In this document: positions 4,139-57,990 of the stretch, piece after piece
Layout: the number at the start of each line of letters is the position of its first letter
Position numbering within the stretch: the first letter of the stretch is position 1
Assembly (NCBI GenBank): GCA_951406725.2
Contig: OX597820.1
Location: 103,354,001-103,418,000, forward strand
DNA length: 64,000 nt
Direction: 5' to 3'
Source of the DNA: Octopus vulgaris
Taxonomy: Eukaryota
Notes under the pieces: generated by a model
Seen by the model: only the letters and a program-made list of their open reading frames with translations
Databases searched by the model: none
What the model was told of the DNA's origin: nothing
Translations under genes and position numbers: made by a program

Positions 4139-4541
4139 TGAGTTTAGTTAAGCATTTTATCTGATCAAATTCATCATATGGTTGCAGGACTGTTTCCGAA
4201 GGGAAACGTAATCTTTCAGGATGATAATGCACAAATTCTCACAACTAAAGTTGTCACTGAATGGCCACAGTCCCCAGATCTCAATATTATTGAACATTTA
4301 TGGTGCATTTTAGAAAAACAAGTAAGGAGCCGATATTCTTCACCATCATCACTACAAGAGCTGGAGACTGTTTTAGCTGAAGAATGGACAAAAATTCTTT
4401 TGGAAACAATTCAAACTTTGTACGAGTCCATACCTCGTGGAATTCAAGCTGTAATCATTGCCAAAGGCGGTCCTACCCCATATTAAAATAAATTTGTTTG
4501 GAATTCTAAGGTGTTTCTATTATTTTTGTCCAATCCCTGTA
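4137..4541 (+). mobile_element. Tc1-type transposon 3' fragment (DD34E transposase C-terminus plus right terminus)
   Basis: ORF 4178-4486 contains FQDDNA...WPQSPDLNIIEHLW...YESIPRGIQAVIIAKGGPTPY and the element ends in ...ttttgtccaatccctg-TA. Confidence 0.85.
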
Positions 4542-4959: not shown

Positions 4960-7640
4960 TTTAGCCAACGAAAACATACGCACTATATACATTTTTGGTG
5001 TTCATTTGCTTCAGCTTTATTTTATATTAGCTGTATTTCGACCACAGTTCTTTCGTCACACTTCTGTGACCTCATCAGTGGTCCTTTGCTTTCTTCTTTC
5101 TTTTTTGTGTCTCCCCTTCCTAACGATCTGCCATTTTGTATTCCTATTGTATGTGTCTTTATTTGCGCATGCGTATATCCCTGTGTGTCTATGTTTAGTA
5201 AGTGTGTGTGTGAGAATGTGTATGGTACCTGCATTATTAGTATCTCCTGTTTATTCGCGTTCATTTAATTTACTTTTATTTATTTTATTCATTTTTATCT
5301 ACTTATTTTTCATTTCTTTCTTTTTTTGTATTAATTTAATTCAATTTAATCTATTTTCTTTTGTTTATGTATATAATTATTTAATTCAATATATCTATTT
5401 GTCTATTGTATGAGTTTCATATTATTATTAGGCAATGCAACCTCACATCGCCAATATGAAAGTAACAACTTTACAGGCGCATGAGGAGAGAGAAAAGGTC
5501 CATGATGTGGACAATTGTTCCGGGACCTCAGAAACGCACGGCCAACAATTTCCAAGCCTGGAACAACGATATCCTGACGCTGTATAGACTCCGCAAGGAC
5601 CACAAAATAACCATCAATCCAATGGCGGGATCACCAAGATCAGTCTGCGGTGCGAATATCGCTAGCAACTACAGGATCTCCTACTTCCTCTCAATGATCA
5701 TATGCTCCATAATCCAGATGTTACCAGATGTTTGTGACAGCACGGAAGATCTCCTCAGCAGGATCAACGACTGTAACAACACCTGCGACCTGTCAGGTTG
5801 TATAGTGGGTAGCACGGATGTGGTATCCCTATACCCACCCATCGACGTAGAAGTGCGTGGAGATGATCAGCGAAAGCGAAGTAGAGTTCCGCAGTGTCAA
5901 CACAGAGGAACTAGGCCTCCTACTTAGACTGACATACGACAGTGAATATCTAGACAAATATGACATTAGAAGTCTCTGCCCCAGTAGACGTTTAAGAGGT
6001 AGACCCCCTACAATTACATCTATGGCTAGGAAGACCCATATAGAGAGATGGACCAGATGGACCAGAGCCATACGGACTCTCGAAAACCAGTATCAAGTAA
6101 AGAAAATGATCGCACATACACTAGGAGCTAGTATAAGAGTTGCCCTAAAAGGCCACACGTTTAAGTTTAACAACAAAATATATGTCTAGGATGAGGGGTT
6201 AACATCGCCGGTGATGTGGCTAACCTTTTCACGGTATAGTGGGACAGGAGGCTTACAGAATACCTGGCACAAAACTCTATACTCATCAACATGTACTCCC
6301 GCTATGTCGATCATATCAACATAGTGGTAAAAGCACCCCAACAAGAGAATATCCTTGATATAGAAATAGAAACTAATACATAGAGAGCATCCAGCAAATA
6401 GCAAACTCCATCCACTAGAGTACTAAGGTCACGATAGACTTTACGAAACACCCTAGCCATAGACTACCAGTACTAGATACAGAACTCTGGCTGGAAACTG
6501 AAAAATAAAACCTAAATCCTCCATTCACACTGTGCCAAACCTATGGCCTCCAAATACCTGATCCACTGGAACTCAGCTATCGCGAACAATGCCAAATTCG
6601 ATATTATTGATGGCAGATCTCATCAGAGTAATGAGAAATGTGTCCCACATGTGCGACCCTGCAAAGTTAAAGACACACATACAATATTTCGTTCACTGCA
6701 TGCAGTTCTCAGGATACAGCCATAGAGAAAGGATCAGAGTATACAAAGGAGCCATGAGGAAATTTGAAACTATCATACGTAACGATAGGAATGGGATTTG
6801 ACCACTCTATAGGAGCAAGTCATGGAATACCATTGAAAGGACTAAGAAAATAGGGAAGGCTAACTCATGGTATGATAGCCACAAATAACAGATTGTCATG
6901 TTCATCGACAGCACCCCTAGAGGTGAATTTGCGTACCGCTTTAGAAGGGTCCTAGAAAAGCTTAAGCTAAGAATTAAGTTTGTAGAAAGGCCAGGAAACC
7001 CTATCAAATCCCTAATCAGTAGAAGCTACCCTTTTAATTGAACCACTGTACTGACAGGAGCTCTATTGTATGTAGATTTAGCCCACAAACAAACTGTAAA
7101 GCTTGGAATGTAGTCTATAGTATAAGATGTACAGAGGGACGGTGCAGAAACAAGGAAATTATGTATAAGGAAGACAACACGGAGCACAAGAGACGGGTAA
7201 ATGAGCATTGGACGCAACGCTTAGACAAATTACAGAAGCTACACACATAATAGATGATAAACTTGGCCTAAATAGAAAACTAGAATGGAACACTAGAGCC
7301 CCCTACACACACACACACCACAACTATGACGGAATGAGATCCCCATAAACTAATAATAATATGAAACTAATAAAATAGACAGATAAATAAATTGAATTAA
7401 ATAATTATAAACATAAACAAAATAAAATATATTAAATTAAATGAATACAAAAAGAGAGAAAGAAATGAAAAAGTAAGTAGATAAAAACAAATGAATAAAA
7501 TAAATAGAAGCAAATTAAACGAACGTGAATAAACAGGGGATACCGATAATGCAGGTTCCATACACATTCCCACACACACATTTATTAAACATAGACACAC
7601 ACAGGGATATACGCACACGCAAATAAAGACACGCAGAGGG
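4960..7640 (+). mobile_element. Decayed Penelope-like retroelement (RT + GIY-YIG) with an inverted 5' copy of its 3' terminal repeat (pLTR)
   Basis: Frameshifted peptides LYRLRKDHK...STDVVSLYPPID (5481-5927), YSRYVDHI (~6295), KPMASKYLIHWNSA, FVHCMQFSGYS and CKAWNVVYSIRC (GIY-YIG start, ~7090). About 5150-5430 is the reverse complement of about 7350-7635. Confidence 0.85.
5039..5083 (-). ncRNA. Minimal type I hammerhead motif in the inverted PLE pLTR (cleavage-site base is G, so probably inactive)
   Basis: Minus strand: gacca-CTGATGA-g-gtcac agaagt gtgac-GAAA-gaac-TG-tggtc. Stems I and II pair. Confidence 0.7.
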
Positions 7641-14392: not shown

Positions 14393-14461
14393 CCATCTGT
14401 ATATCCACATTGCATATGCTGTAACGCCCAAAGATAAACAAATACGACAAACGTATCTATA

Positions 14462-14642
14462 GACGCAAGCGTGGCTGAGTGGTAAGAAGATTGCCTCCCA
14501 ACTATGCGGTCTTGGGTTCAGTACCACCGTGGAGCACCTAGGCAATTACGTATCTTCTGCTATAGCTTCGGGCTGACCAAAGCCTTGTGAGTGGATTTGA
14601 TAAACAGAAGCTGAAGAAAGCACGTTGCACGTGTGTGTGCGC

Positions 14643-14691
<49 letters not shown>

Positions 14692-14897
14692 CGTGCGTGC
14701 GTGTGTGTGTGTGAGTGTACGCGCGCGCTCGCTCACGTTTGTGTTTGTTCTCCACCATTGTTTGATAATCGATGTTGGTGTGTTTACGTCCCTGTAACTT
14801 AGCAGTTTTGGCAAAAAGAGGCCAATAGAATAAGCACCAGGTTTAAAATATAAATAAGTATTGTGATCGATTTGTTCGACTAAAATCTTTCAAGGCT
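14462..14897 (+). mobile_element. SINE family A, diverged
   Basis: Homologous to the copy at 15037, with an internal (CG)n/(TG)n tract. Confidence 0.8.
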
Positions 14898-15036
14898 GTA
14901 AGCAAAAGAAAATATTTCAGTCATACGTACAAATATATACTTACGATGATTTCGTCGCCGCCACCTGTACCAGTACAGCCATCGTCACCACCAACAACAA
15001 CGGCAACAGTAAAAAGAGTAACACCACTAACATACA

Positions 15037-15207
15037 GGCGCAGGAGTGGCTGTGTGGTAAGTAGCTTGCTAACCAACCACATGGTTCCGGGTTCAGTCCC
15101 ACTGCGTGGCACCTTGGGCAAGTGTCTTCTGCTATAGCCTCGGGCCGACCAAAGCCTTGTGAGTGGATTTGGTAGACGGAAACTGAAAGAAGCCTGTCGT
15201 ATATATG

Positions 15208-15273
<66 letters not shown>

Positions 15274-15497
15274 TGTGTGTGTTTGTGTGTCTGTGTTTGT
15301 CCCCCTAGCATTGCTTGACAACCGATGCTGGTGTGTTTATGTCCCCGTCACTTAGCGGTTCGGCAAAAGAGACCGGTAGAATAAGTACTGGGCTTACAAA
15401 AGAATAAGTCCCGGGATCGAGTTGCTCGATTAAAGGCGGTGCTCCAGCATGGCCGCAGTCAAATGACTGAAACAAGTAAAAGAGTAAAAGAGAGAGT
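15037..15497 (+). mobile_element. SINE family A, young full-length copy with internal (TA)n/(TG)n
   Basis: Near-identical to 32736-33152, 38976-39385 (-) and 40582-41002. tRNA-like A/B boxes; 3' hairpin cagtcaaatgactg and (aaagagt)n tail. Confidence 0.92.
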
Positions 15498-15578
15498 ATA
15501 TCTCTATATTTAACAGATAAAAATGTTGATTGCAGAATAGATACAGCTTAGTACAATCTTTAAAGACAGAAGAGAATA

Positions 15579-16091
15579 CCGTAAATCCTCGAGTATAATC
15601 CGCATTTCCCCCCAAAATTGAAAGGTCAAAATCCCTAGTGCGTACTATATACGAGGTTAACAATAAAAAATATTTTCTAAGCAATGTCTGAGTTTCTCTT
15701 TGCTGTCTGGCAATGTTTATTCAGACGCATTTTGTGATGTTGGGCGCGAAAATACCTTAAGCTAAGCCTGAAAGCAATGAAGCCATAAAAGAATCCTTCA
15801 TAACTTGCAGTAAGCAACATTTATTAAAATAAAAGTATTCATGACATGTAACGAAAACAATTTGCAAACATATTTACATTCCCATATAACAGTTAAGAAC
15901 ATCACCATTATTGTATTACGCATGCGCGGAAGTGTGTTTGTTCGACTAGGTGCTGCTGGCTTAATTACGCACGACTCAAGTTAGAGAAGGGGTGCGTATT
16001 ATACACAAGGTTTAGGTTTTTCAGAGGTACAGCCCCTTAAGAATCCCCTGCGTATTATACTCAAGGTCAGACTATACTCGAGGATTTACGG
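15579..16091. mobile_element. pogo/Tigger-type (Tc1-mariner superfamily) MITE
   Basis: TIRs ccgtaaatcctcgagtata and tatactcgaggatttacgg, flanked by a TA TSD, with subterminal gtgcgta.tatac repeats. Confidence 0.85.
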
Positions 16092-16130
16092 TATTTTCAC
16101 GTTTATGAATTTGTTTAGCAAAATTCCTGA

Positions 16131-16385
16131 GGACGGTCTTCTTTTGTCAAATAAATACCTGCACTTTATACTTCTTCCTCACTTCGGCTTTATTATTGTT
16201 CTTATTTTAGTGTCCTTTGTCTCCTCACACGTGGAAGGGATATTCGCTGAAGAAGTCACAGGGTGTGTGACGAAAGATTTCAGACAAAGGATAGGAAAAT
16301 AAGAATAACAATAAAGCTGAAGTGAAGAACGAGTATATAGTGCGTGTGTTTATTTGCCAAAGTAAAAAAAAACAATGACCGTACC
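16131..16385 (+). mobile_element. PLE terminal fold-back with a degenerate hammerhead in the loop
   Basis: Imperfect arms 16131-16222 and 16282-16385. The loop has CTGAAGA-a-gtcaca gggtg tgtgac-GAAA (16247-16275). Downstream sequence is homologous to the pLTR at 4965-5075 (-). Confidence 0.65.
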
Positions 16386-16479
16386 GAAATAGAAAAATAT
16401 TTTCAAATCTCTCAATTTATCATTGAAGAGAGTAAAAGAAAAAGAGAAAAATATAATCCCAAATTGAATGTTATGGACT

Positions 16480-16690
16480 ATATAAAAACACGCAATAACG
16501 ACTATTGTATATAAGTTATGCATACCAGACGCTGTGCCTAAACTTACGACGCTCTTTAATCTATCGCTATCTACGGGGATATAACCTGACATTTGGAAGC
16601 ACGTCTTACATTGTCCCATTCCAGAGAAAGGTAAACTCCTCTGATTCAGCTAACTATCGCCTCTTTTCTCTCATTTCTGACATTTCTCTC
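16480..16690 (+). mobile_element. Degenerate LINE RT fragment
   Basis: SSDSANYRLFSLISDIS resembles the NYRPISL motif just upstream of non-LTR RT domains. Confidence 0.5.
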
Positions 16691-17054
16691 TCTCTCTAAC
16701 ACACACACACACACACACACACACAGATGCGCGCGCGCTTTCTCCCACCGTCTCTCTATCTTATCTCCCCTCAGTGACCACTAATGTGACTACGACCGAG
16801 TCAGATCCACTGGAAACATGTTCTCTTACATCACTCATCAGCTGCTATCACTCTGAAACAACACAGAAGGTATTTGGAGTGTTCGAAATAAAGAAATTAT
16901 CAAACCCAAAACTTAAAAGGGTGAATTCGAGACGTTGCGTGAAAGATTGCGTTACAGAAAAAAACGAATTTTTCAATTGCAGCGTAGAAGGTGTTTGTAA
17001 GCCATTTAAGAAACACACAAAAGCCGTTCGATTCACTTCAACATTTAAGTTTAA

Positions 17055-17105
17055 TTTGTCAAAATATTTTCGTCGCTTTAAGACTGCAACCTGTTCACTG
17101 ACAAA
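17055..17105 (-). ncRNA. Minimal type I hammerhead motif, G3:C8 core variant (mirror copy)
   Basis: Minus strand: tttgtca-GTGAACA-g-gttgc agtcttaaa gcgac-GAAA-atat-TT-tgacaaa. Confidence 0.7.
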
Positions 17106-17124
17106 AATCTGTGCTGCACGGATT

Positions 17125-17175
17125 TTTGTCAGTGAACAGGTCACGGTCTTAAAGCGACGAAAATATTTTGACAAA
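17125..17175 (+). ncRNA. Minimal type I hammerhead motif, G3:C8 core variant
   Basis: tttgtca-GTGAACA-g-gtcac ggtcttaaa gcgac-GAAA-atat-TT-tgacaaa; 7-bp stem I and palindromic stem III (AATATT). Confidence 0.7.
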
Positions 17176-17479
17176 TTAAACTTAAATGTTGAAGTGAATC
17201 GAACGGCTTTTGTGTGTTTCTTAAATGGCTTACAAACACCTTCTACGCTGCAATTGTTTTCGTTTCAGCACACGATCACAGATCAAATCACTTGCTATAC
17301 AAGTACATCTCCACAAAATTTTCAGGCCAGCATTAAATACAAATTTGTTTGTAATCTACAAGTTGTACGACGTTGAAGTGATCGCAGAGCAACGTGAAAT
17401 AAAGCTTTTTGCTGAAGAACACAACGCATCGCGATCACGAGATGGTGAGATCAACACCCTTACTACTAAGCCCTTTCTA

Positions 17480-18800
17480 TTGGAGATTAAGAGATAACTT
17501 CTTAGTGAAAGTAACCCTTTCTCAGGAAGATCATAAAGCTTTTTAGAGTGTAAAAGAGGATTTCGGCTGAAAAGCATCATGCAATAAAATTCACAAATTA
17601 GAATAATTTCGGATGCGTTGATGAGGAGGAAGGCATTAATGATGACGCTTCGAGCAAAATCTTTCTCCAAGGCAGAGAAAAAGCTAAATATTTAGTGTAA
17701 CACTAAGGTGCGAAGAATTGCAAAAAGGATAGATAGAAATGAAAGAAGGGAGCAAGGAAAAGACGAATAACCAAACGAAAAGGGTATTAATAGGCGGTCA
17801 ATGACCAGAGTGAGAAAGCTAAGGGAAAGGAAGGGCAGTAATGAGTTATACAGACTAAATATTCAAAGATGAGGAAGCGCCAAAAGGCAGCAATAGAGTG
17901 AGGAGTGTACTGTGTAACACATATGATGAGAAACATATACACATAAAAAATAAAGAAAATACATGCGTGTATATATAATAACAGCAAAAGTGATGTGTAT
18001 ATATAATGACAGTAAAAGTGATGTTTTACACCATCTTTAAACCGAGTAGCCGTTTTCCGATATAACTAAAGATGCGATAATAAAAAAATAGCTTATAAAG
18101 GTGATATATATTTAATTGAGAAGGAGTTTATATATACTGAAATTCCAAGTTTTAAGAGTAAGCATTTAAAATATTTAACAGTTGACAAGGAATATAGATA
18201 GAAATATGAGTGTCGAAGTAAAAAGAAAAGTGTAAGGCAATGAGGTATACAGAAATTTCACCTTAGAGAAATAGAGGAACTAGAGAAACATAAAAGAAGA
18301 GAAAGAAAAGAATGTATGATAGAAGTATGATAGAAAGGGGATAAAGAAAGGAAGAATATAAAAAAGAAAGAAGGGGGAAATCGAACTACAAGAATAGTCG
18401 ATACAATTAGTTGTGGTAGCGTTATGGGGTAAAGGGTGTATCTCCGAAAGGAGTGAGAAAGTAAATAAGAAATAGAATTGCTTATGATTATGTAAATGAC
18501 CTTGCCCTTTGCCAGACACCTATTCTTATCCCGCGTAGAAGCAAGAAGAAAAGAGAAGAAAGCCCTAAGAAAATGTAATGTTTATGATTGAATAAGTGAC
18601 AGAACGTCCCGAGAGAAAGAAACAGTGAATAGGAAAAGGTGGAAGTATTCTAGATTTCGAAGCATTGAAGTGTAAGGGAAAGGAGGGAAAAAGAAAGTTA
18701 TAGTAAAATTCAGAAAAGGAAGAAAGAAAAAGAAAAAAGATAAGAAATGGTTAAGTGGAAAGCGCCATATAGTGACACTACAGTTAAAGATGACCGGTAC
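17480..18800 (-). mobile_element. Possible highly decayed LINE body
   Basis: Strand-asymmetric purine-rich tract; LEKDFARSV at ~17670 loosely resembles the RT motif D.EKAFDxV. Nothing else is intact. Confidence 0.3.
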
Positions 18801-19734
18801 TTAAATAAATACAAAAAAAAATTGGTGTTTTGATAGATAAGATAGAATATAACAATGATTAAATCATTTCCTGTCACCTCAGCCAGAGGCTATGGCTAAG
18901 CTGAGGTACCATTAAATAAATAAAATATCATAAAATAAAAAGTAGTCCAAGATTCAATAATCAAATTCAATTATTCAAATAATGAGGGAAAAGGTGCCAT
19001 TTTACAGATAGTTTTCAATCTCCTGAGAAGAAACGTTCAACAACACAAACTACAGATCAAGATGGATAGGATATGCAAAGGACATGATATTTGCAGATGG
19101 TCTAGGAACCTCCAGAAATATTAGACGATTTCAAAACCATTCCACTGGAGAAAATACAATATATTCAGCCTGTAGATAGAGTAAATTTTCGCAACTTGTT
19201 ATAGTGACGACATTACGAGATTAACTAACACCTAGAATTCAGGAAGTCGATATCACGAATTTTTCAATAGTATACAGAAAGAGCAGAATTTAGACTCTCT
19301 CATTGCACCACCAGATATGGTTTGACAAATTCTACCGCAACATGCCATCTTAAGATGCATAGTTTTTTTCCCTGATGTGCCGCAAAAGAGAGATAGTATG
19401 AATTTTCTTCAGGTTCACTGTCACATACGTTTTTGAAAACAAGAAGGACAATGCATCTATGTAGGGCAGAGAATATGTATATTTGTGGATGTGTGGATAC
19501 GTATATATGTACACATCGTCAAGAACGCTAGTGAATATAAAAATGTAGGGTAAATAACTACAATGTATAGGCATTCTTGATCAGAGATATAGAATTGCAC
19601 CGAACAATATTGCTGCTGATATATTTGCTTGGTTCAGAAAACAAAATTCATGTACTGTTGTGGCGGTCAGCTTCCTTGTCTATATAAATATTTCAAAATA
19701 AGTAAGGAAGGAAACATCTGCTTCTGAAACTGGA

Positions 19735-23536: not shown

Positions 23537-24345
23537 GTCATTTACTTTTAATCTGCATGTTTGATGCAATCACCTGCCGGGGCACACCCAGCGCCCTAGG
23601 GCAAGTGAAGGTTAAGAGTTGTTGAAATATAGCTGAAAGCTTGGGGAGGGGAAGTAGAGATATATCTCCATGTAATGCAAACACAGACATTTACATTGAT
23701 AGGGTTTTTCTAAGGATGTGGGCAGTACTTGTTAGCACAATCTTTTGGATTTCCTTGAGACATGGTTTTCCAGGGATATTGTCTAGGTGTTTCTGACATC
23801 CCTTTTTTATCATACCTAGGGCACCTACAATAACAGGAACAGTTTTTGTTTTAAGATTCCACATCCTCTGTATTTCGATTTCCAGGTCCTTATATTTACT
23901 AAGTTTGTCAAATTCCTTGACAGATACATTTTTATCAGTGGGGACGCTTACTTCTATTAGTCTGCAGGTATTTTCTTCCCTGTCTTTAACAATTATGTCT
24001 GGTCGATTAGCCTTGATCGTTCTGTCAGTGTTGACTGGAAAATCCCAGAGGATGGTGACATCTTTACCTTCAACAACTGGCTGAGGATGGTGTTCATACC
24101 AGTTAGCAGGAGTGTCGGATTTGTAGTGTTTACATATCTTCCAATGTATATACTGTCCTACCCTATCGTGGCGATTTTTGTATTCGTTTGGTGTCAGCAC
24201 AGGACATCCCGAAACGAGATGGTCTATCGTTTCGTCAAATGTGTCGCAGAATCTGCATTTAGGGTCAGTACCGTTTCGGAGAACGTTAGCCTGGTAATTT
24301 CTGGTAAACAAGCTTTGATCTTGTGCTGCCATTATGAAACCTTCA

Positions 24346-24346
<1 letters not shown>
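23537..24346 (-). mobile_element. R4/Dong LINE copy A, 5'-truncated (zinc finger + endonuclease + 3' UTR)
   Basis: TEGFIMAAQDQ...CRFCDTFDETIDHLVSGC...RHD...NRPDII...EVSVP...KLSKYKDL; open to the stop at 23691 and bounded by (TTA)n. Confidence 0.92.
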
Positions 24347-24417
<71 letters not shown>

Positions 24418-24418
<1 letters not shown>

Positions 24419-27400
24419 TATGTTTGACTTTTGCTTTATATTTGTACAAGTTGGCGCCAAGTCTCACCCAGAGACCTCAAGAGACAACAGGGTTGGAAGT
24501 TCATGTTGTTGTTATGCCTAGTTTGCCATATATTTGGGGGGTGGGGATGTTGTACTAATGAATGTCTAAAAAAAAAAGTTTTTTTTTTTTTTTTTTTTAA
24601 ACCGAAAATTATGGTTGTTTTAAACCTTGAGGTTACATAGAGAGTATTTTGCGTAGGATATGAGCAGTTCCCATGAGCACTATCTTTTGAACTTCTGCCA
24701 TTTTTGGGTTTCCTGGTATCTGAGTTAGGTAGCTATCAGCCCCTTTTGCTATCATTCCCAGGGCACCTATGACAACAGGTATTGTTTTAGTCTTCAGCTT
24801 CCACATTTTGCTGATTTCTATTTCAAGATCTTTATATTTGCTCAGTTTTTGGTAGGTCCTGACAGATACGTTTATATCGATTGGGACAGTCATATCAATG
24901 AGGAGGCATGTTCTTTGTTTGAAGTCTTTCAATATGATGTCTGGCCTATTTGCATCTATCTTCCTGTCAGTTTGAATGGTGAAGTTCCAGAGGAGTGAGA
25001 TGTGGTCATTTTCAAGCACTGGGGGTGGTTTGTGTTCCCACCAGTTTTTTTCATGGGGCAAATCCAGGTTTTTACAGATTACCCAGTGAATATATTGTGC
25101 AGCTCTATCGTGCCTGTTGAGATACTCTGTAGGCGCTAGAAGACTGCACTTGGAGACCACATGGTCAATGGTTTCATTTTGTTGCTTGCATACACGACAC
25201 CTTGGACTGCTTCTGATCTTTAATATGTTGGCCTGGTAGTTTCTTGTTGGTAGGCATTGATCTTGAGCTGCTATGATAAACCCCTCTGTTTCAGATTTTA
25301 AGCCAGAGGCCATTAGCCATTGATGGGTCAGGGCTTTGTCGATATCTGCATTATTCGCTCTCTTTGGGTATTTGCCATAGAGAGGTTTTTCTTGCCATTT
25401 ATTATTCAGAATATCTAAGGCCGCAGTTTTGGCACGGGTTTTCATGCGCCTAGCTTTTTCTGTGCTTGTTTCTTGTATGTCTATCTCTAATTCCGAAATT
25501 GGTTGTATTCGGAATTCACTTAGATATTCCTTTGCCTGTTTTGTGACTGAGTATGATGCTTTCTTGTTTTCATGTTTTGAGACAAGTTTTAACATCCAGT
25601 CCTCAGAGTTTTTCAGGTAGGTGTCTAGGCCAATTGTAGCAATCTTCATTGTTATTGCCAGTTGCAAAAGACCACGGCCTCCCTATTTTCTTGGCAGATA
25701 GAGTCGTTCTGTATCTGCCTTAGGGTGGTGCATTCTATGCATTGTCAACAGTTTCCTTATTTTTCTGTCGAGCTGACATATTTCAGTAATTGACCAGTTA
25801 ACAATATTGAAACTGTAAGTCACGACTGGTATAGCTAATGCATTGATTGCTTCGATCCTGTTTCTTGCATTCAGCTCTGTCTTGAGTATTGCTCTCACTC
25901 TTCGATAGCATTCTCTCCTGATCCTTTCCTTCATCTCTGAATGCCTTATTCCGTTCCCTTCAATTACCCCTAGGTACTTGTAGCTCTCCGCTGGGTCTAG
26001 TTCTTTTATGACATTCTGTTGGTCAAGGTTAACGTTAGATGTTTCTATCATTTTTCCTTTGATAAAGGTAGCCTTTGCACATTTATCGAGGCCGAATTGC
26101 ATTCTGATGTCGTCACTGAATTGTTTGACTATCGCTAGTAAGCCCTTGAGTTGTTGATCATTTTTTGCAAAAAGCTTTAAATCATCCATATAAACGAGAT
26201 GATTTATATTTTTATCAAACATTTTATACCCGTACTGCGCGTCATTGAGCAGCTTTGAGAGAGGTATTAAGGATAAACAAAAGAGGAGTGGTGACAGTGA
26301 GTCACCCTGGAAAATGCCACACGAAATTTTTACATCACCAGCATTTAGGGATTCACTGTCACTGTTCAGAGTTAGTGTGGTTCTCCATGATCTCATACTT
26401 ACAGTCAAGAAGTTTCGCAGAGTTGGTGCTATCTTATACATTTCAAGGCATTTCCTAATCCAGCTATGTGGTAGGCTATCAAAAGCCTTTTTATAGTCTA
26501 TCCAGGCTATTGATAAGTTTTTGTGTCGTTTGTGACAATCTTCTAAGATCATCTTATTGATGAGTAGTTGGTCTTTACAGCCGTAGGATCCACGTTTACA
26601 TCCTTTCTGTTCATTAGGGAATATGCTGCTGTCTGTTAAAAAACTATAGGTATATTCCGTCAGGACAGATGTTAGTGTTTTGTACATAGTTGTTAAGCAG
26701 GTTATGGGTCTATAGTTTTTTGGTTCATTTGTTTCTTCACTTTATGGAAGCAGGAATGTTAACCCATTAACTAGCAAAGGAGGCATCCTACTACGGTGTT
26801 GCAAAACATCATTGTACAGTTCTGTTAGCAGTTCATGGCTCTCTGGGAAGGCATTCAGCCAGAAGTTAGGAATTTTATCCTTTCCTGGAGACTTCCATTT
26901 GCTTGACCTCCTGAGAGCAGATCTTATATCTTCTACCTTGACACCCTCCCACTTTTGCTCTTCTAAGGGGTCCAGTTCTGTAGATATTCTGTCAATCCAG
27001 GGGGCCTTTTCGTTGTGTGTTTTTTCTTCTGCCCAGATTTTATTCCAAAATCTCTGCACTTCTTCTTTTGATGGTACAGACCCTGCAGTAAACGCTGTTT
27101 TTCCTATCTTCCTGTAAAAATTCTTGGTGTTATTTTTGAACATGTTGTTGTCCTTGAAAAATCTAACACGCTTTTCATACCTCGCTATGCGGGCAGCTTT
27201 GGCAGATACCTTTTGTTTGATGGTTTCTATGGTGGCATCAATATCAAGTATAGTTTTCATATTGTATTTTTTCAGTAATTTTTGGGTTTTTGTAGGTTTG
27301 GTAGTCTTGTGAGCCTTAAGGTTTTTCAAATATTCAATGTCAGATCTAAATACTTTAATTTGTTGTTGCAGACGCTCTTGCCAAGAAGGTTTTTTGTGGG

Positions 27401-27679
27401 ACTGTTGCCGTTTTCTAATCTTTACACCACATAGGATCGTTGAGATTTTCGCGGATGCATAGTATAGGTGGTTGAGGTTTGTGATATCAACATCATTAAC
27501 TGAAATTATATCCTTAAGTGCAAGCCGGATTTTACCAATTATTTTCATGTTTTGGTTAGAGTTGCGGATTTTAGGAAGTGTATCACGCTCATCCATGCTG
27601 GTTTCTTTAATTTTCAGCCATTCAATCATGATTTGATTTTTCAGCTCATGTAGTTCTGTTGGGTCAATATTTGTGTGAC

Positions 27680-27681
<2 letters not shown>
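24418..27681 (-). mobile_element. R4/Dong LINE copy B, 3.26 kb, 5'-truncated
   Basis: RT motifs KSPGKDKI, NYRPITC, WIDYKKAFDS, GIFQGDSLSPLLF and YMDDLKL; CCHC finger CRVC...H...C; endonuclease RHD...RPD...D...K..KY; bounded by (TTA)n. Confidence 0.95.
24633..27629 (-). pseudogene. Reverse transcriptase / restriction-like endonuclease polyprotein, single frame with two premature stops
   Basis: The three track ORFs are in one frame, joined as LLP*SEETNEPKNYRP (TAA at 26742-26744) and LPRK*GGRGL (TAG at 25683-25685). Confidence 0.92.
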
Positions 27682-27733
<52 letters not shown>

Positions 27734-27752
27734 CATTATTATTATTATTATC

Positions 27753-27788
<36 letters not shown>

Positions 27789-27890
27789 CAGTAGTTTTAT
27801 TTTTATTTTTATAGCGTGCTTTCACTTCACTACCGAGCGCAGCTCTGTGTGCCTTGGGTATGTGCTGTGATTTGTTGTGATGCTCTGATA

Positions 27891-27892
<2 letters not shown>
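27789..27892 (-). mobile_element. ~100-bp 3'-UTR-only copy of Dong family C
   Basis: Near-identical to 28015-28115; (TTA)n on both sides. Confidence 0.85.
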
Positions 27893-27956
<64 letters not shown>

Positions 27957-27975
27957 CATTATTATTATTATTATC

Positions 27976-28013
<38 letters not shown>

Positions 28014-28014
28014 T

Positions 28015-29248
28015 CAGTAGTTTTATTTTTATTTTTATAGCGTGCTTTCACTTCACTACCGAGCGCAGCTCTGTGTACCTTGGGTATGTGCTGTGATTTG
28101 TTGTGATGCTCTGATGGTTATTGTATGGAAAGTGTTCTGCGTAGGATGTGTGCAGTGCCTAGTAGTGCAATTTTCTGTATGTTATATGTGTTTGTAAGTC
28201 CTGGTGTTTTTGTTATGTATTTGTCTGAATATTTTTTTATCATGCCTAATGCACCTACTATGATAGGAATTGTTTCTGTTTTCAGATTCCACATTCTAGT
28301 TACCTCTATTTCCAGGTCTTTGTATTTTGAGAGTTTCTCCATTTCTTTTAGAGACACGTTGTCATCTGCCGGTACTGATACATCAATTAGAAAGCATTTT
28401 TTTTTCTTCATGGTCTCTGACAACTATATCTGGTCTGTTGGCCTTAATTTCTCTATCTGTGTGTATCGGCATATCCCAGAGTATGGTTGCTTTCTCGTTT
28501 TCTGTGACCTTTTCTGGTGTGTGCCTATACCATCTTTTTTCTGTTGTTATTCCATAATGTTGGCATAGCTTCCAATGTATGTAAGTTCCAACTCTGTCAT
28601 GTCTGTGAATATATTCCTTCTTAGCCAGGACTGGGCAGCTAGAGATAATATGATTTATTGTTTCTTGTCCATCTCCACATATTCTGCAGTTACTTGTAAT
28701 ATTTCTTTTCATTACATGTTTTTGGTAATTTCTGGTGGGGAGGCTTTGGTCTTGTGCTGCAATTAAAAATCCCTCTGTTTCTGCTTTGAGTCCTGAGCTT
28801 CTCAACCATTGCTGGGATTTTTCTTTGTCTATTTCTTTTGCGTTTAGTTTAGTCCAGTATTTACCATGAAGGGGCTTTTCTTGCCATCGTTTTATCATGG
28901 TTCGTTGCTGTTCTATTTTTAGTTTGGATTTCATTTTTTTTATAGCTTTTGTTGTTTCTTCATCTTCTTCTTCTTCTTCTTCATGTTTATTAGGTGGTAT
29001 GATTTCTTGTTTGTATTTGTCAGCTTCCTTAAATACTGAGAACAGTTTTTTGTTTTGCTCGTGTTTTGCCGCTATCTGGATCAGTTTTCCTTCCTTCTGA
29101 AGTAGATATTTTTGCAGTCCTATGGTGGTTATTTTATAGTAGTTTTCCAGCTGTATAAGGCCTCTACCACCTTCTATACGTTGTATATATAGTCTTTCTA
29201 TGTCAGATTTTGGGTGGTGCATCCTAGATCCTGTCATTATTTTTCTTC

Positions 29249-29250
<2 letters not shown>
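28015..29250 (-). mobile_element. R4/Dong LINE copy C, 5'-truncated, one frameshift in a poly-A run (~28400)
   Basis: MHHPKSDIERLY...GGRGL...AAQDQSLPTRNY...CRICGDGQETINHIISSC...RHD...RPDIVV, continuing in another frame as CFLIDVSVP...KLSKYKDL. Confidence 0.92.
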
Positions 29251-56224: not shown

Positions 56225-57990
56225 TCAGTGATATTAATAGTAGTAATGCTCCTGGTTACAATTGTAGAGTTAAATCCCACTGTCCGTTATTAGGCCGATG
56301 TCTAATCCAAAACGTAGAGATTGGTACTTTATATATATAGGATGTTCGATAAATATGAAAAAACGTATCAATAACCATTTTCCATCTTTTAGACTCAAAC
56401 ATAAAGCCAATTTTACGTCCTTATCTAGCAAGATTTGGGAAATGAAGGAAAGCGGGATCGAAATTAGCCTTAAATGGGATATAATACGGAAAACGCGGCC
56501 TTATAGAAATAGTCGATACGGGTGTGAGCCGTACTCTATGGAAACTTATGAGATTTTTAAGTATAGGGACAACAACAACCTGATTAATAATAGATTACAC
56601 CTAAGGGTATCATGCGTGCATAGTGTCACCCGTATATTTAAGTACTTTCGAAATTAGCGATTATAGGTGCCATACTTGAACTTTGGTGGTTGAAATCAAT
56701 TTTGGTGTCGCATCTTTTTTAAACTTACCCTCTAGTATTTAATATAATAAAATCATGGGATATTATGTTATATGGTGAATTAAGTTGCATTGCATATGTT
56801 ATAAGCTATATGTTATGGTATGTGGTGTGCTATATGTAATTACTATCCCATGATAACTCCTCCCTAGTTAGTCTGACTTCATCATATTTTTGGTGATTAA
56901 ACTATTTTTTCTTTTATTTCCTTTCTATGATGTCTGATCATATGTATATTTGTAATGGCTTTTATGTAAGTAAGTATTCTAATTATATACCCCCTAGAAA
57001 CTATAAAATCATATATTTAATAACACCTGTAGCATAAAAATTTATAAGATCTCTTCGGTCTGAATACCTCTAACTGCCCTTACTATACCCATACCTACTG
57101 CCTCCGCTTTTCGGGTTACCTTTATATCTTCCCTACCTCAAATTTTAATACCCTGTCTCTTTAAATATAGGTTATATATATTTCTTATTTTCTATAAATT
57201 CTTATTATCATGTTTTCTTATTTTGATATCCTTACCTATTAACCTCTTATCCCTTAAAATTGTTACTGTTCTTAAATAGAGATTTTTCAGCTACTTAGGT
57301 CTATGCGAGAGGGTTATACTATATCCATATAAACGTAAAAATATTTGTATATGTGTATATATGCATATATGTGCATAACCTATTAATCTCTTATCTCTTA
57401 TAAATTGTTATTTTTCTTGTTCGTAAATAGATACTTTTCAGTTACTTAAGTCTATGCGAGATGGTTATACCATATCCATGTAAAGATATAAATATTTGTG
57501 TATGTGTATGTGTGCATGTGCGCATATATATATAAATATGTGTGTGTCTCTGTACACATCTTTATTTTTTCTGATTCTTGGCTTATAATTAATATATAGA
57601 TTGTATGTTTATCTTTCGGGTATTCCATAAGTAAGTGCATTGAGCAGCCTTTATAGAAAGCACCTAATAAGTAATTAATTAAGTACATGAATGAATATTA
57701 AACTGATTTTATGTAATCTTTCTTTGTTAATGTTGATAATTGATATATACACACATATTACCTATTTTCGTTATGATACCATTTTTTATAATCTTAAATT
57801 TTATTTTTATACAACATAACAATATTGTTTATAAACAATCACCCATATACCCCAAGATAAAATTTCCTCTGTATTAACATCCTAACTTTTATTAGCGTCT
57901 TGCCCCTTTAACTGGTAATTAACATCATTATGAGATCATGGTTAATCGTCTTATGGTAGACACTATAGGTGCAGTTCTGAAGATGCACCT
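55200..57990 (+). mobile_element. Decayed Penelope-like element: inverted terminal piece, RT C-terminus, poly-Asn linker, GIY-YIG endonuclease, AT-rich 3' region (3' limit uncertain)
   Basis: FPASHRYNGIFSRKTVRISYSNLPNMGTII (~55620-55720); YNCRVKSHCPLLGRCLIQNV; YIGCSINMKKRINNH...TSLSSKIW...LKWDII...CVH (56298-56657). Confidence 0.8.
55242..55327 (-). ncRNA. Type I hammerhead ribozyme motif with canonical core, at a PLE end next to (TA)n/(TG)n
   Basis: Minus strand: tgcag-CTGATGA-tagcactgcatttaa...ttaaatggagccgctt-GAAAC-ggtc-GTA-ctgca. Confidence 0.75.

Follow-up and report, generated by a model that had tools for sequence, protein, structure and literature searches.

Minimal type I hammerhead ribozymes are known from the pLTRs of metazoan Penelope-like elements (PLEs; Cervera and de la Pena 2014, PMC4209133). 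They combine the type I topology with an additional residue that separates position 9 from 10.1, a G10.1-C11.1 pair and a palindromic stem III, can be paired on opposite strands, and include a natural covariant of the 3:8 base pair, U3-A8 (PMC3088659, PMC4209133). All these traits, including the place in a pLTR, the opposite-strand pairing and the natural covariation at 3:8, recur at a locus of Octopus vulgaris (contig OX597820.1), which we analyzed within a 64-kb window, the whole stretch of DNA under study. The differences lie in the 3:8 pair itself, which is G3-C8, and in stem I, which has 7 bp as against 4-5 bp. The text of PMC4209133, as far as available to us, contains no natural G3-C8 core, nor is there one among the 9 occurrences of GUGA in its supplement. 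We found none in the literature searched; the study of PLE hammerhead variants by Lunse et al. 2017 could contain it.

A PLE that offers a precedent is Poseidon PAc of the lizard Anolis carolinensis (Frangieh et al. 2024, PMC11167929), whose protein extends both target strands, beginning from two internal positions that delimit the "tail" of the element. Like PAc, the octopus element, referred to here as family A, has its hammerhead close to where the ORF begins, inserts into AT-rich targets and, as we propose below, uses two internal start sites that delimit a tail, and an uncut RNA as template. In PAc, however, G3-C8 is an engineered C3G/G8C swap, partly active with protein, and the ribozyme overlaps the ORF start, whereas in family A G3-C8 is the wild type and the motif lies wholly upstream of the ATG. 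Family A further differs from PAc in its tail of ~56-60 nt and its Cys-rich RT-EN linker.

Inverted 5' copies and a tail at one end are typical of PLE insertions (PMC8557442). With the Neptune/Nematis-type PLEs of that study, family A shares the RT, the CX2-5CxxC linker, the GIY-YIG domain, inverted 5' copies, the one-end tail and (TA)n targets, but its tail is longer than their 30-40 nt; the comparison with Neptune or Nematis is by published description. Non-LTR retrozymes (bioRxiv 10.64898/2026.07.22.740005) are likewise short non-coding hammerhead units from PLE pLTRs. They form tandem units, each with a complete hammerhead, whereas family A mostly occurs as single or head-to-head copies ending at fixed 3' sites, and the present locus is head-to-head.

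Our reading of the locus, to which we assign a probability of roughly 0.7, is that it consists of head-to-head PLE copies, each with a predicted minimal hammerhead having a natural G3-C8 pair, which were put in place by the insertion mechanism described below.

The palindrome and its hammerhead-like motifs

The inverted repeat has two arms of 141 nt each, which are 97% complementary and separated by a 1-nt spacer (Table 1). Four mismatches distinguish the arms, with CpG-type decay among them. An earlier note had described a 283-bp palindrome with a predicted hammerhead on each strand; the arms, the fold and the GUGAACA core in each arm are as it stated, and its placement of the predicted cut is correct for the plus-strand motif. 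The element itself extends beyond the palindrome on the right side only.

Table 1. Positions of the palindrome, the element copies and the hammerhead-like motifs in the window
Feature	Positions	Strand	Remarks
Left arm of inverted repeat	16974..17114		
Right arm of inverted repeat	17116..17256		
Inverted short copy of PLE terminus	16974..17118	-	inferred RNA +4 to first fixed 3' end; basis: inverted repeat, left arms at other palindromic loci stop alike, 3'-end classes
Short copy of PLE terminus	17116..17316	+	inferred RNA +8 to second fixed 3' end; basis: family search, 30-locus alignment, matches near RT-EN ORFs
Microhomology (3 nt) joining both arms, palindrome centre	17116..17118	.	sequence versus family 5' end
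PLE tail, ~56-60 nt, right arm only	17257..17316	+	stretch between the two fixed 3' ends; element ends at ~17316
First 29 PLE ORF codons	17225..17312	+	ATG at 17225; N-termini homologous in sister families B and C
Possible imperfect target-site duplication	17317..17324	.	matches 16967-16975, one T different
Minimal type I hammerhead-like motif	17125..17175	+	predicted cut after U17 (17168)
Stem I	17125..17131	+	
Core GUGAACA	17132..17138	+	G3 17132, C8 17137; extra G 17139
Stem II	17140..17158	+	from G10.1 (17140) to C11.1 (17158)
GAAA	17159..17162	+	
Palindromic AAUAUU (stem III)	17162..17167	+	
Stem I'	17169..17175	+	
Mirror hammerhead-like motif	17055..17105	-	G3 at 17098; cleavage predicted between 17062 and 17061

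A relaxed hammerhead descriptor found exactly 2 matches in the window, the two motifs of the palindrome, and only 1 match across 40 locally shuffled windows used as control. Measured against the minimal type I hammerheads of PLEs, the motif has a Watson-Crick pair at 3:8, the expected residues U4 G5 A6, A9, G12 A13 A14 A15.1 and U16.1, a U at H17, the extra nucleotide between 9 and 10.1, the G10.1-C11.1 pair, a palindromic stem III and a position in the pLTR of a PLE. The literal CUGANGA core is absent; since both arms and the family have GUGAACA instead, we treat the motif as a variant and not as a member of the consensus. Stem I has 7 bp in each arm. In the plus copy one pair of stem II has decayed, leaving an A-C mismatch at 17143, a position with G in 77 of the 98 aligned copies; stem II of the minus copy is intact, with a U-G wobble at the equivalent pair.

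An Rfam scan of 15000-19500 yielded no hammerhead family. Rfam was also blank for relatives with C3-G8, and reported none at five loci with C3-G8 or U3-A8 motifs; since relatives with the usual cores are missed too, this result is uninformative on the swap. For the 197-nt short RNA, the predicted minimum-energy fold is not the hammerhead, and the predicted pair probability of stem I is 0.43-0.48. The ribozyme is likely to be slow, and would need a second copy, via the palindromic AAUAUU, or the element protein.

The parent element

Searching the genome with 17116-17330 gave 1,592 candidates, of which 40 were scored; the best copies were 95-98% identical over ~197-204 nt. Exact matches to the motif pattern number 4,639 genome-wide (2,341 + 2,298), compared to 0 for the reversed-pattern control. 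In 6 of the 30 best loci the shared sequence continues upstream, and in one of them (L016) it reaches a GIY-YIG-like frame, which in turn has 3,950 candidates in the genome. The motif lies ~1 kb downstream of long RT-EN ORFs, where the sequence of the right-hand copy recurs, as it does upstream of the ORF in a tandem copy (L057), in which the motif leads into the next ORF, with an ATG equivalent to that at 17225.

The family-A ORFs (839 and ~1000 aa) have a YVDD motif and a Pfam GIY-YIG match at the C-terminus (25.4 bits, cut-off 22.6), preceded by a CX3CxxC motif that conforms to the CX2-5CxxC linker. Pfam RT does not match the family ORFs; their named homologs are RT-domain proteins, the closest being from Octopus vulgaris. 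The features of PLEs are thus present: a single ORF with RT and C-terminal GIY-YIG, partial tandems forming pLTRs, and an inverted 5' copy with a tail at one end. Because the motif is continuous with RT-EN, GIY-YIG ORFs, we identify the element as the terminus of a PLE, of Neptune/Nematis type by its linker.

One array of family A (L009 / L033:5977-7793) comprises six head-to-tail units of 180-196 bp plus two inverted copies. Stem II is broken in 5 of the 6 tandem units, and the array may be retrozyme-like or the result of local amplification.

Variation of the 3:8 base pair

Of 98 aligned family-A copies, 97 have G3 and 95 have C8, and no core position varies in more than 3 of them; since the family is young and G3-C8 is confined to one lineage, this conservation is weak evidence of selection. 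C8 is lost in two diverged copies (L081, L068). CpG-type decay at 17143 apart, the largest column differences are in loop II. Coding was considered as a cause of the conservation and rejected, as an upstream ATG at the element start soon meets a stop in all three subfamilies.

The comparison with other lineages carries more weight. Eight PLE lineages have the motif and all are Watson-Crick at 3:8, four with C-G, three with U-A and one, family A, with G-C; as these lineages are related, the covariation does not represent eight independent events. Family B, with ~54% identity to family A over RT-EN, combines a C3-G8 pair with C9; its stem II differs from that of family A, and it has a G15.2-C16.2 pair. 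Family C has U3-A8. In both sister families, the motifs lie 92-135 nt upstream of ATGs homologous to that of family A. Among nine metagenome relatives, four have the motif, two with C3-G8 (L201, L206) and two with U3-A8 (L203, L204); the other five have none, several of these being short. An unplaced family (in L102) again has C3-G8.

Our first descriptor demanded a 3:8 pair. With this demand lifted, all 32 matches in 42 loci were still Watson-Crick (24 C-G, 5 U-A, 3 G-C); a broken family-B-like copy (L106) with U3-G8 is the exception. The sister lineages covary at 3:8 and also in stems II and III. In our tree of the loci, families B and C are joined first and then family A (support 100); the deeper nodes are weak (30 and 43) and therefore do not fix the ancestral 3:8 pair. 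The earlier note had proposed a natural covariant family of PLE-type minimal hammerheads, in which a genome search should find G3/C8 and the stems conserved. As far as sequences can tell, the proposal is well supported: the core is kept in family A, in thousands of matches, and 3:8 and stems II and III covary in its sisters. The G3-C8 motif is thus likely to be a natural variant of the ribozyme.

Two pairing-restoring changes separate a C-G or U-A pair from G-C. A G3-C8 mutant was reported to be less active with C17 than with G17 (PMC3884650); U17 is common in the clade, and the absence of C17 may have permitted the swap. If the G3-C8 form cuts, then a core swap that we met in the literature searched only as an engineered mutant is in use in nature, and ribozyme searches based on CUGANGA overlook whole high-copy families. 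The sister families in one genome (G-C, C-G with C9, and U-A) would allow core variants to be compared under the same protein context.

Some further variants came up in these searches. In family B (L078/L079, e.g. L079:1637), whose ORFs of 1,312 aa are intact, every descriptor match has C in place of A at position 9, as does the metagenome locus L203; this C9 makes a second natural variant of the core. In L204:291, U3-A8 is accompanied by U, not G, at position 5, in a single copy that may be a variant or decayed. L102:3820 (-) and 4128 (+) are canonical CUGAUGA minimal hammerheads of another family, head-to-head and ~300 bp apart. A supposed second G3-C8 family in L083 was discarded, as the GUGAACA match lies outside the element.

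RNA template and ends at the predicted cut

Only 910 matches retain what precedes the apparent +1, as against 4,639 with the longer motif pattern. In the first 100 listed of the 453 matches with a non-C base before +1, this base is G in 77, A in 13 and T in 10, with AT-rich targets. Of 30 loci read, 24 start with G, and in these the G is preceded by target DNA or by the inverted arm; as these loci share no upstream sequence, we reject the idea that the extra G derives from a spliced first exon. An extra G is the mark of capped full-length insertions in LINE-1 (PMC11702581), and Penelope has an internal promoter (PMC2377424). As the non-templated G stands ~60 nt upstream of the predicted cut in many short copies, we infer that the template was a capped RNA, beginning 7 nt upstream of 17116, which was reverse-transcribed through the uncut hammerhead. 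The +1 region also resembles a splice acceptor, with branch point, pyrimidine tract and AG (L057:5695-5722 and equivalents), so that this start-site reading rests on the extra G.

In the mechanism we propose, the pLTR promoter would give rise to this capped RNA, whose first 70 nt would contain the hammerhead and whose ORF would begin near +117. Cutting would strip off the cap and the first ~60 nt, and most of the templates copied into the genome would have been uncut. Cleavage may then be a brake and not a step of transposition, which sharpens the question of what role hammerheads have in PLEs.

The 5' ends of the copies bear on whether the motif cuts at all. For the predicted cut our estimate is ~32 ends (48 matches; 20 of 30 loci read), and for a control position ~19 (70 matches; 8 of 30 loci read), a ~1.7-fold difference that is based on one control position and confounded by microhomology with TA repeats. 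Ends abutting TA are scattered, with 3-4 of 32 loci at the predicted cut. A clear genomic pile-up of 5' ends at the cut was not seen, and the account of the lizard PLE in PMC11167929, so far as available to us, likewise reports no genomic sign of cleavage.

These ends and the mostly uncut templates agree with a different view of family A, namely that it descends from a hammerhead-bearing PLE but its G3-C8 form no longer cuts, being either a structural relic or an RNA element that binds protein or overlaps the promoter. It would fit this view that PAc inserts in vitro without cleavage (PMC11167929) and that Naiad PLEs thrive without canonical hammerheads (PMC8557442). Against this view, the step to G-C requires two changes that restore pairing at 3:8, the rest of the core has been retained together with the extra nucleotide, the G10.1-C11.1 pair and a palindromic stem III, and the engineered double swap keeps part of its activity. 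We regard a loss of cleavage as unlikely, albeit as the alternative to be taken most seriously.

Two 3' ends and the origin of the palindromes

Head-to-head copies are common in family A. Among the first 100 motif matches listed there are 11 minus/plus pairs within 250 bp, 10 of which have a gap of 22-35 nt, as at 16974-17256; extrapolation gives roughly 460 head-to-head palindromes in the genome. Among loci whose base before +1 is not C, 18 of the first 30 are head-to-head. The 3' ends of the copies fall into two clusters. From 129 loci we collected 209 ends, of which 188 are in the clusters, 77 near +148 and 111 near +205, and 21 are elsewhere. Among 58 distinct head-to-head pairs, 46 combine one end of each cluster, none uses the same site twice, and 12 include an unclassified end. 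The two clusters, listed in Table 1 as first and second fixed 3' ends, would be start sites 1 and 2 of reverse transcription. The locus follows this two-site pattern, its left arm ending at the mirror of 17256, its right arm at the far end of the tail, and the two meeting at the 3-nt microhomology.

From these ends we infer that the two target strands prime at separate fixed sites, one per strand, and that the cDNAs meet at the 5' end of the RNA. The element protein would nick both strands of AT-rich DNA and prime inside the RNA, near +148 on one strand and near +205 on the other. Both cDNAs would proceed to the RNA 5' end and join there via microhomology, leaving a palindrome with a one-sided tail. 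Together with the cap-like G, the strict pairing of the two 3' ends provides genomic support for the origin of the tails and inverted repeats of PLEs.

By this comparison of sequences, the palindrome at 16974-17256 is a pair of head-to-head short copies of a PLE end, and both copies were likely made in a single insertion event. A search for the empty site with the right flank gave nothing but an unrelated short repeat (17369-17432). Sequencing runs under three other organism labels contain part of the stretch. A more ambitious reading joins the two lines of evidence: an active and hitherto unreported natural G3-C8 hammerhead would be fixed in a PLE family of thousands of copies, and the palindromes would record a rule of integration by which each strand primes at its own fixed site on capped, uncut RNA. 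We advance it tentatively, at somewhat under even odds. If it is true, the catalytic 3:8 pair occurs within one clade in three of its four possible Watson-Crick states.

The full palindrome as a hairpin

Residues +1 to +3 are absent from both arms. The +1 start is thus lacking on either side, and a read-through RNA would form the full hairpin, so that the locus is probably an inert by-product. The full palindrome is predicted to fold as one near-perfect 140-bp hairpin of -234 kcal/mol, in which the predicted pair probability of the hammerhead stem I is ~1e-49. The earlier note had expected a transcript of either strand to contain a ribozyme with its antisense, in a ~140-bp double strand that could switch cleavage off or feed ADAR/Dicer. 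The predicted hairpin is in agreement with the first part, but a switch is not what it suggests: the antisense arm is made first on either strand, so that the ribozyme would be locked, with the hammerhead fold predicted absent and cleavage permanently off. Nothing in the analysis supports a role with ADAR/Dicer: PLE insertion routinely yields head-to-head copies (PMC8557442), and no host exon was found nearby in the 123 ORFs scanned.

That the palindrome is nevertheless kept as a regulatory hairpin, one that would keep the ribozyme silent or supply ADAR or small-RNA pathways with substrate, appears quite improbable to us. In its favor one could cite the stability of the predicted fold and the contigs of four presumed-RNA runs, which cover the family pLTR and include two opposite-strand joints. 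The coverage is at the family level, however, with strand, ends and locus not discriminated, and the contigs are specific neither to this locus nor to one strand; no intron-type joint was seen in them. The insertion mechanism should yield such palindromes by the hundred, and CpG-type decay is among the mismatches between the arms. A Pfam scan of 123 complexity-filtered ORFs (of 194), which short exons could escape, revealed no host exon near the palindrome, its only matches being a weak DDE and a weak GIY-YIG one. The hairpin is most likely a by-product of insertion; the locus is not a special one and is in itself probably of no consequence.

A further reading, by which a MITE or foldback DNA transposon resembles a hammerhead by chance, is scarcely credible in spite of the long terminal inverted repeats and the high copy number. 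Inverted repeats do not bound all copies, since among the 30 best about two thirds consist of one arm plus a tail, and the target duplications are of variable, not fixed, length. Sister families carry hammerheads at the equivalent place, and the sequence is continuous with an RT-EN ORF, the motif running into the PLE ORF in L057, which rules such a transposon out.

Other features in the window

Further remnants of mobile elements are scattered over the window. A broken family-B-like PLE ORF copy lies at 5399-7324 (+), and a weak GIY-YIG match below the cut-off at 56274-56654 (+) is probably another PLE remnant. Frames at 23691-29249 (-) resemble, by eye, the RT and C-terminal endonuclease of a non-LTR retrotransposon, and 4148-4483 (+) has a weak match to the DDE_3 transposase, below the cut-off. 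A SINE-like repeat containing microsatellites is present twice, in diverged form, at 14458-14853 and 15033-15404, and a second inverted repeat, with 80-nt arms that are 83% complementary and 59 nt apart, lies at 16143-16361.
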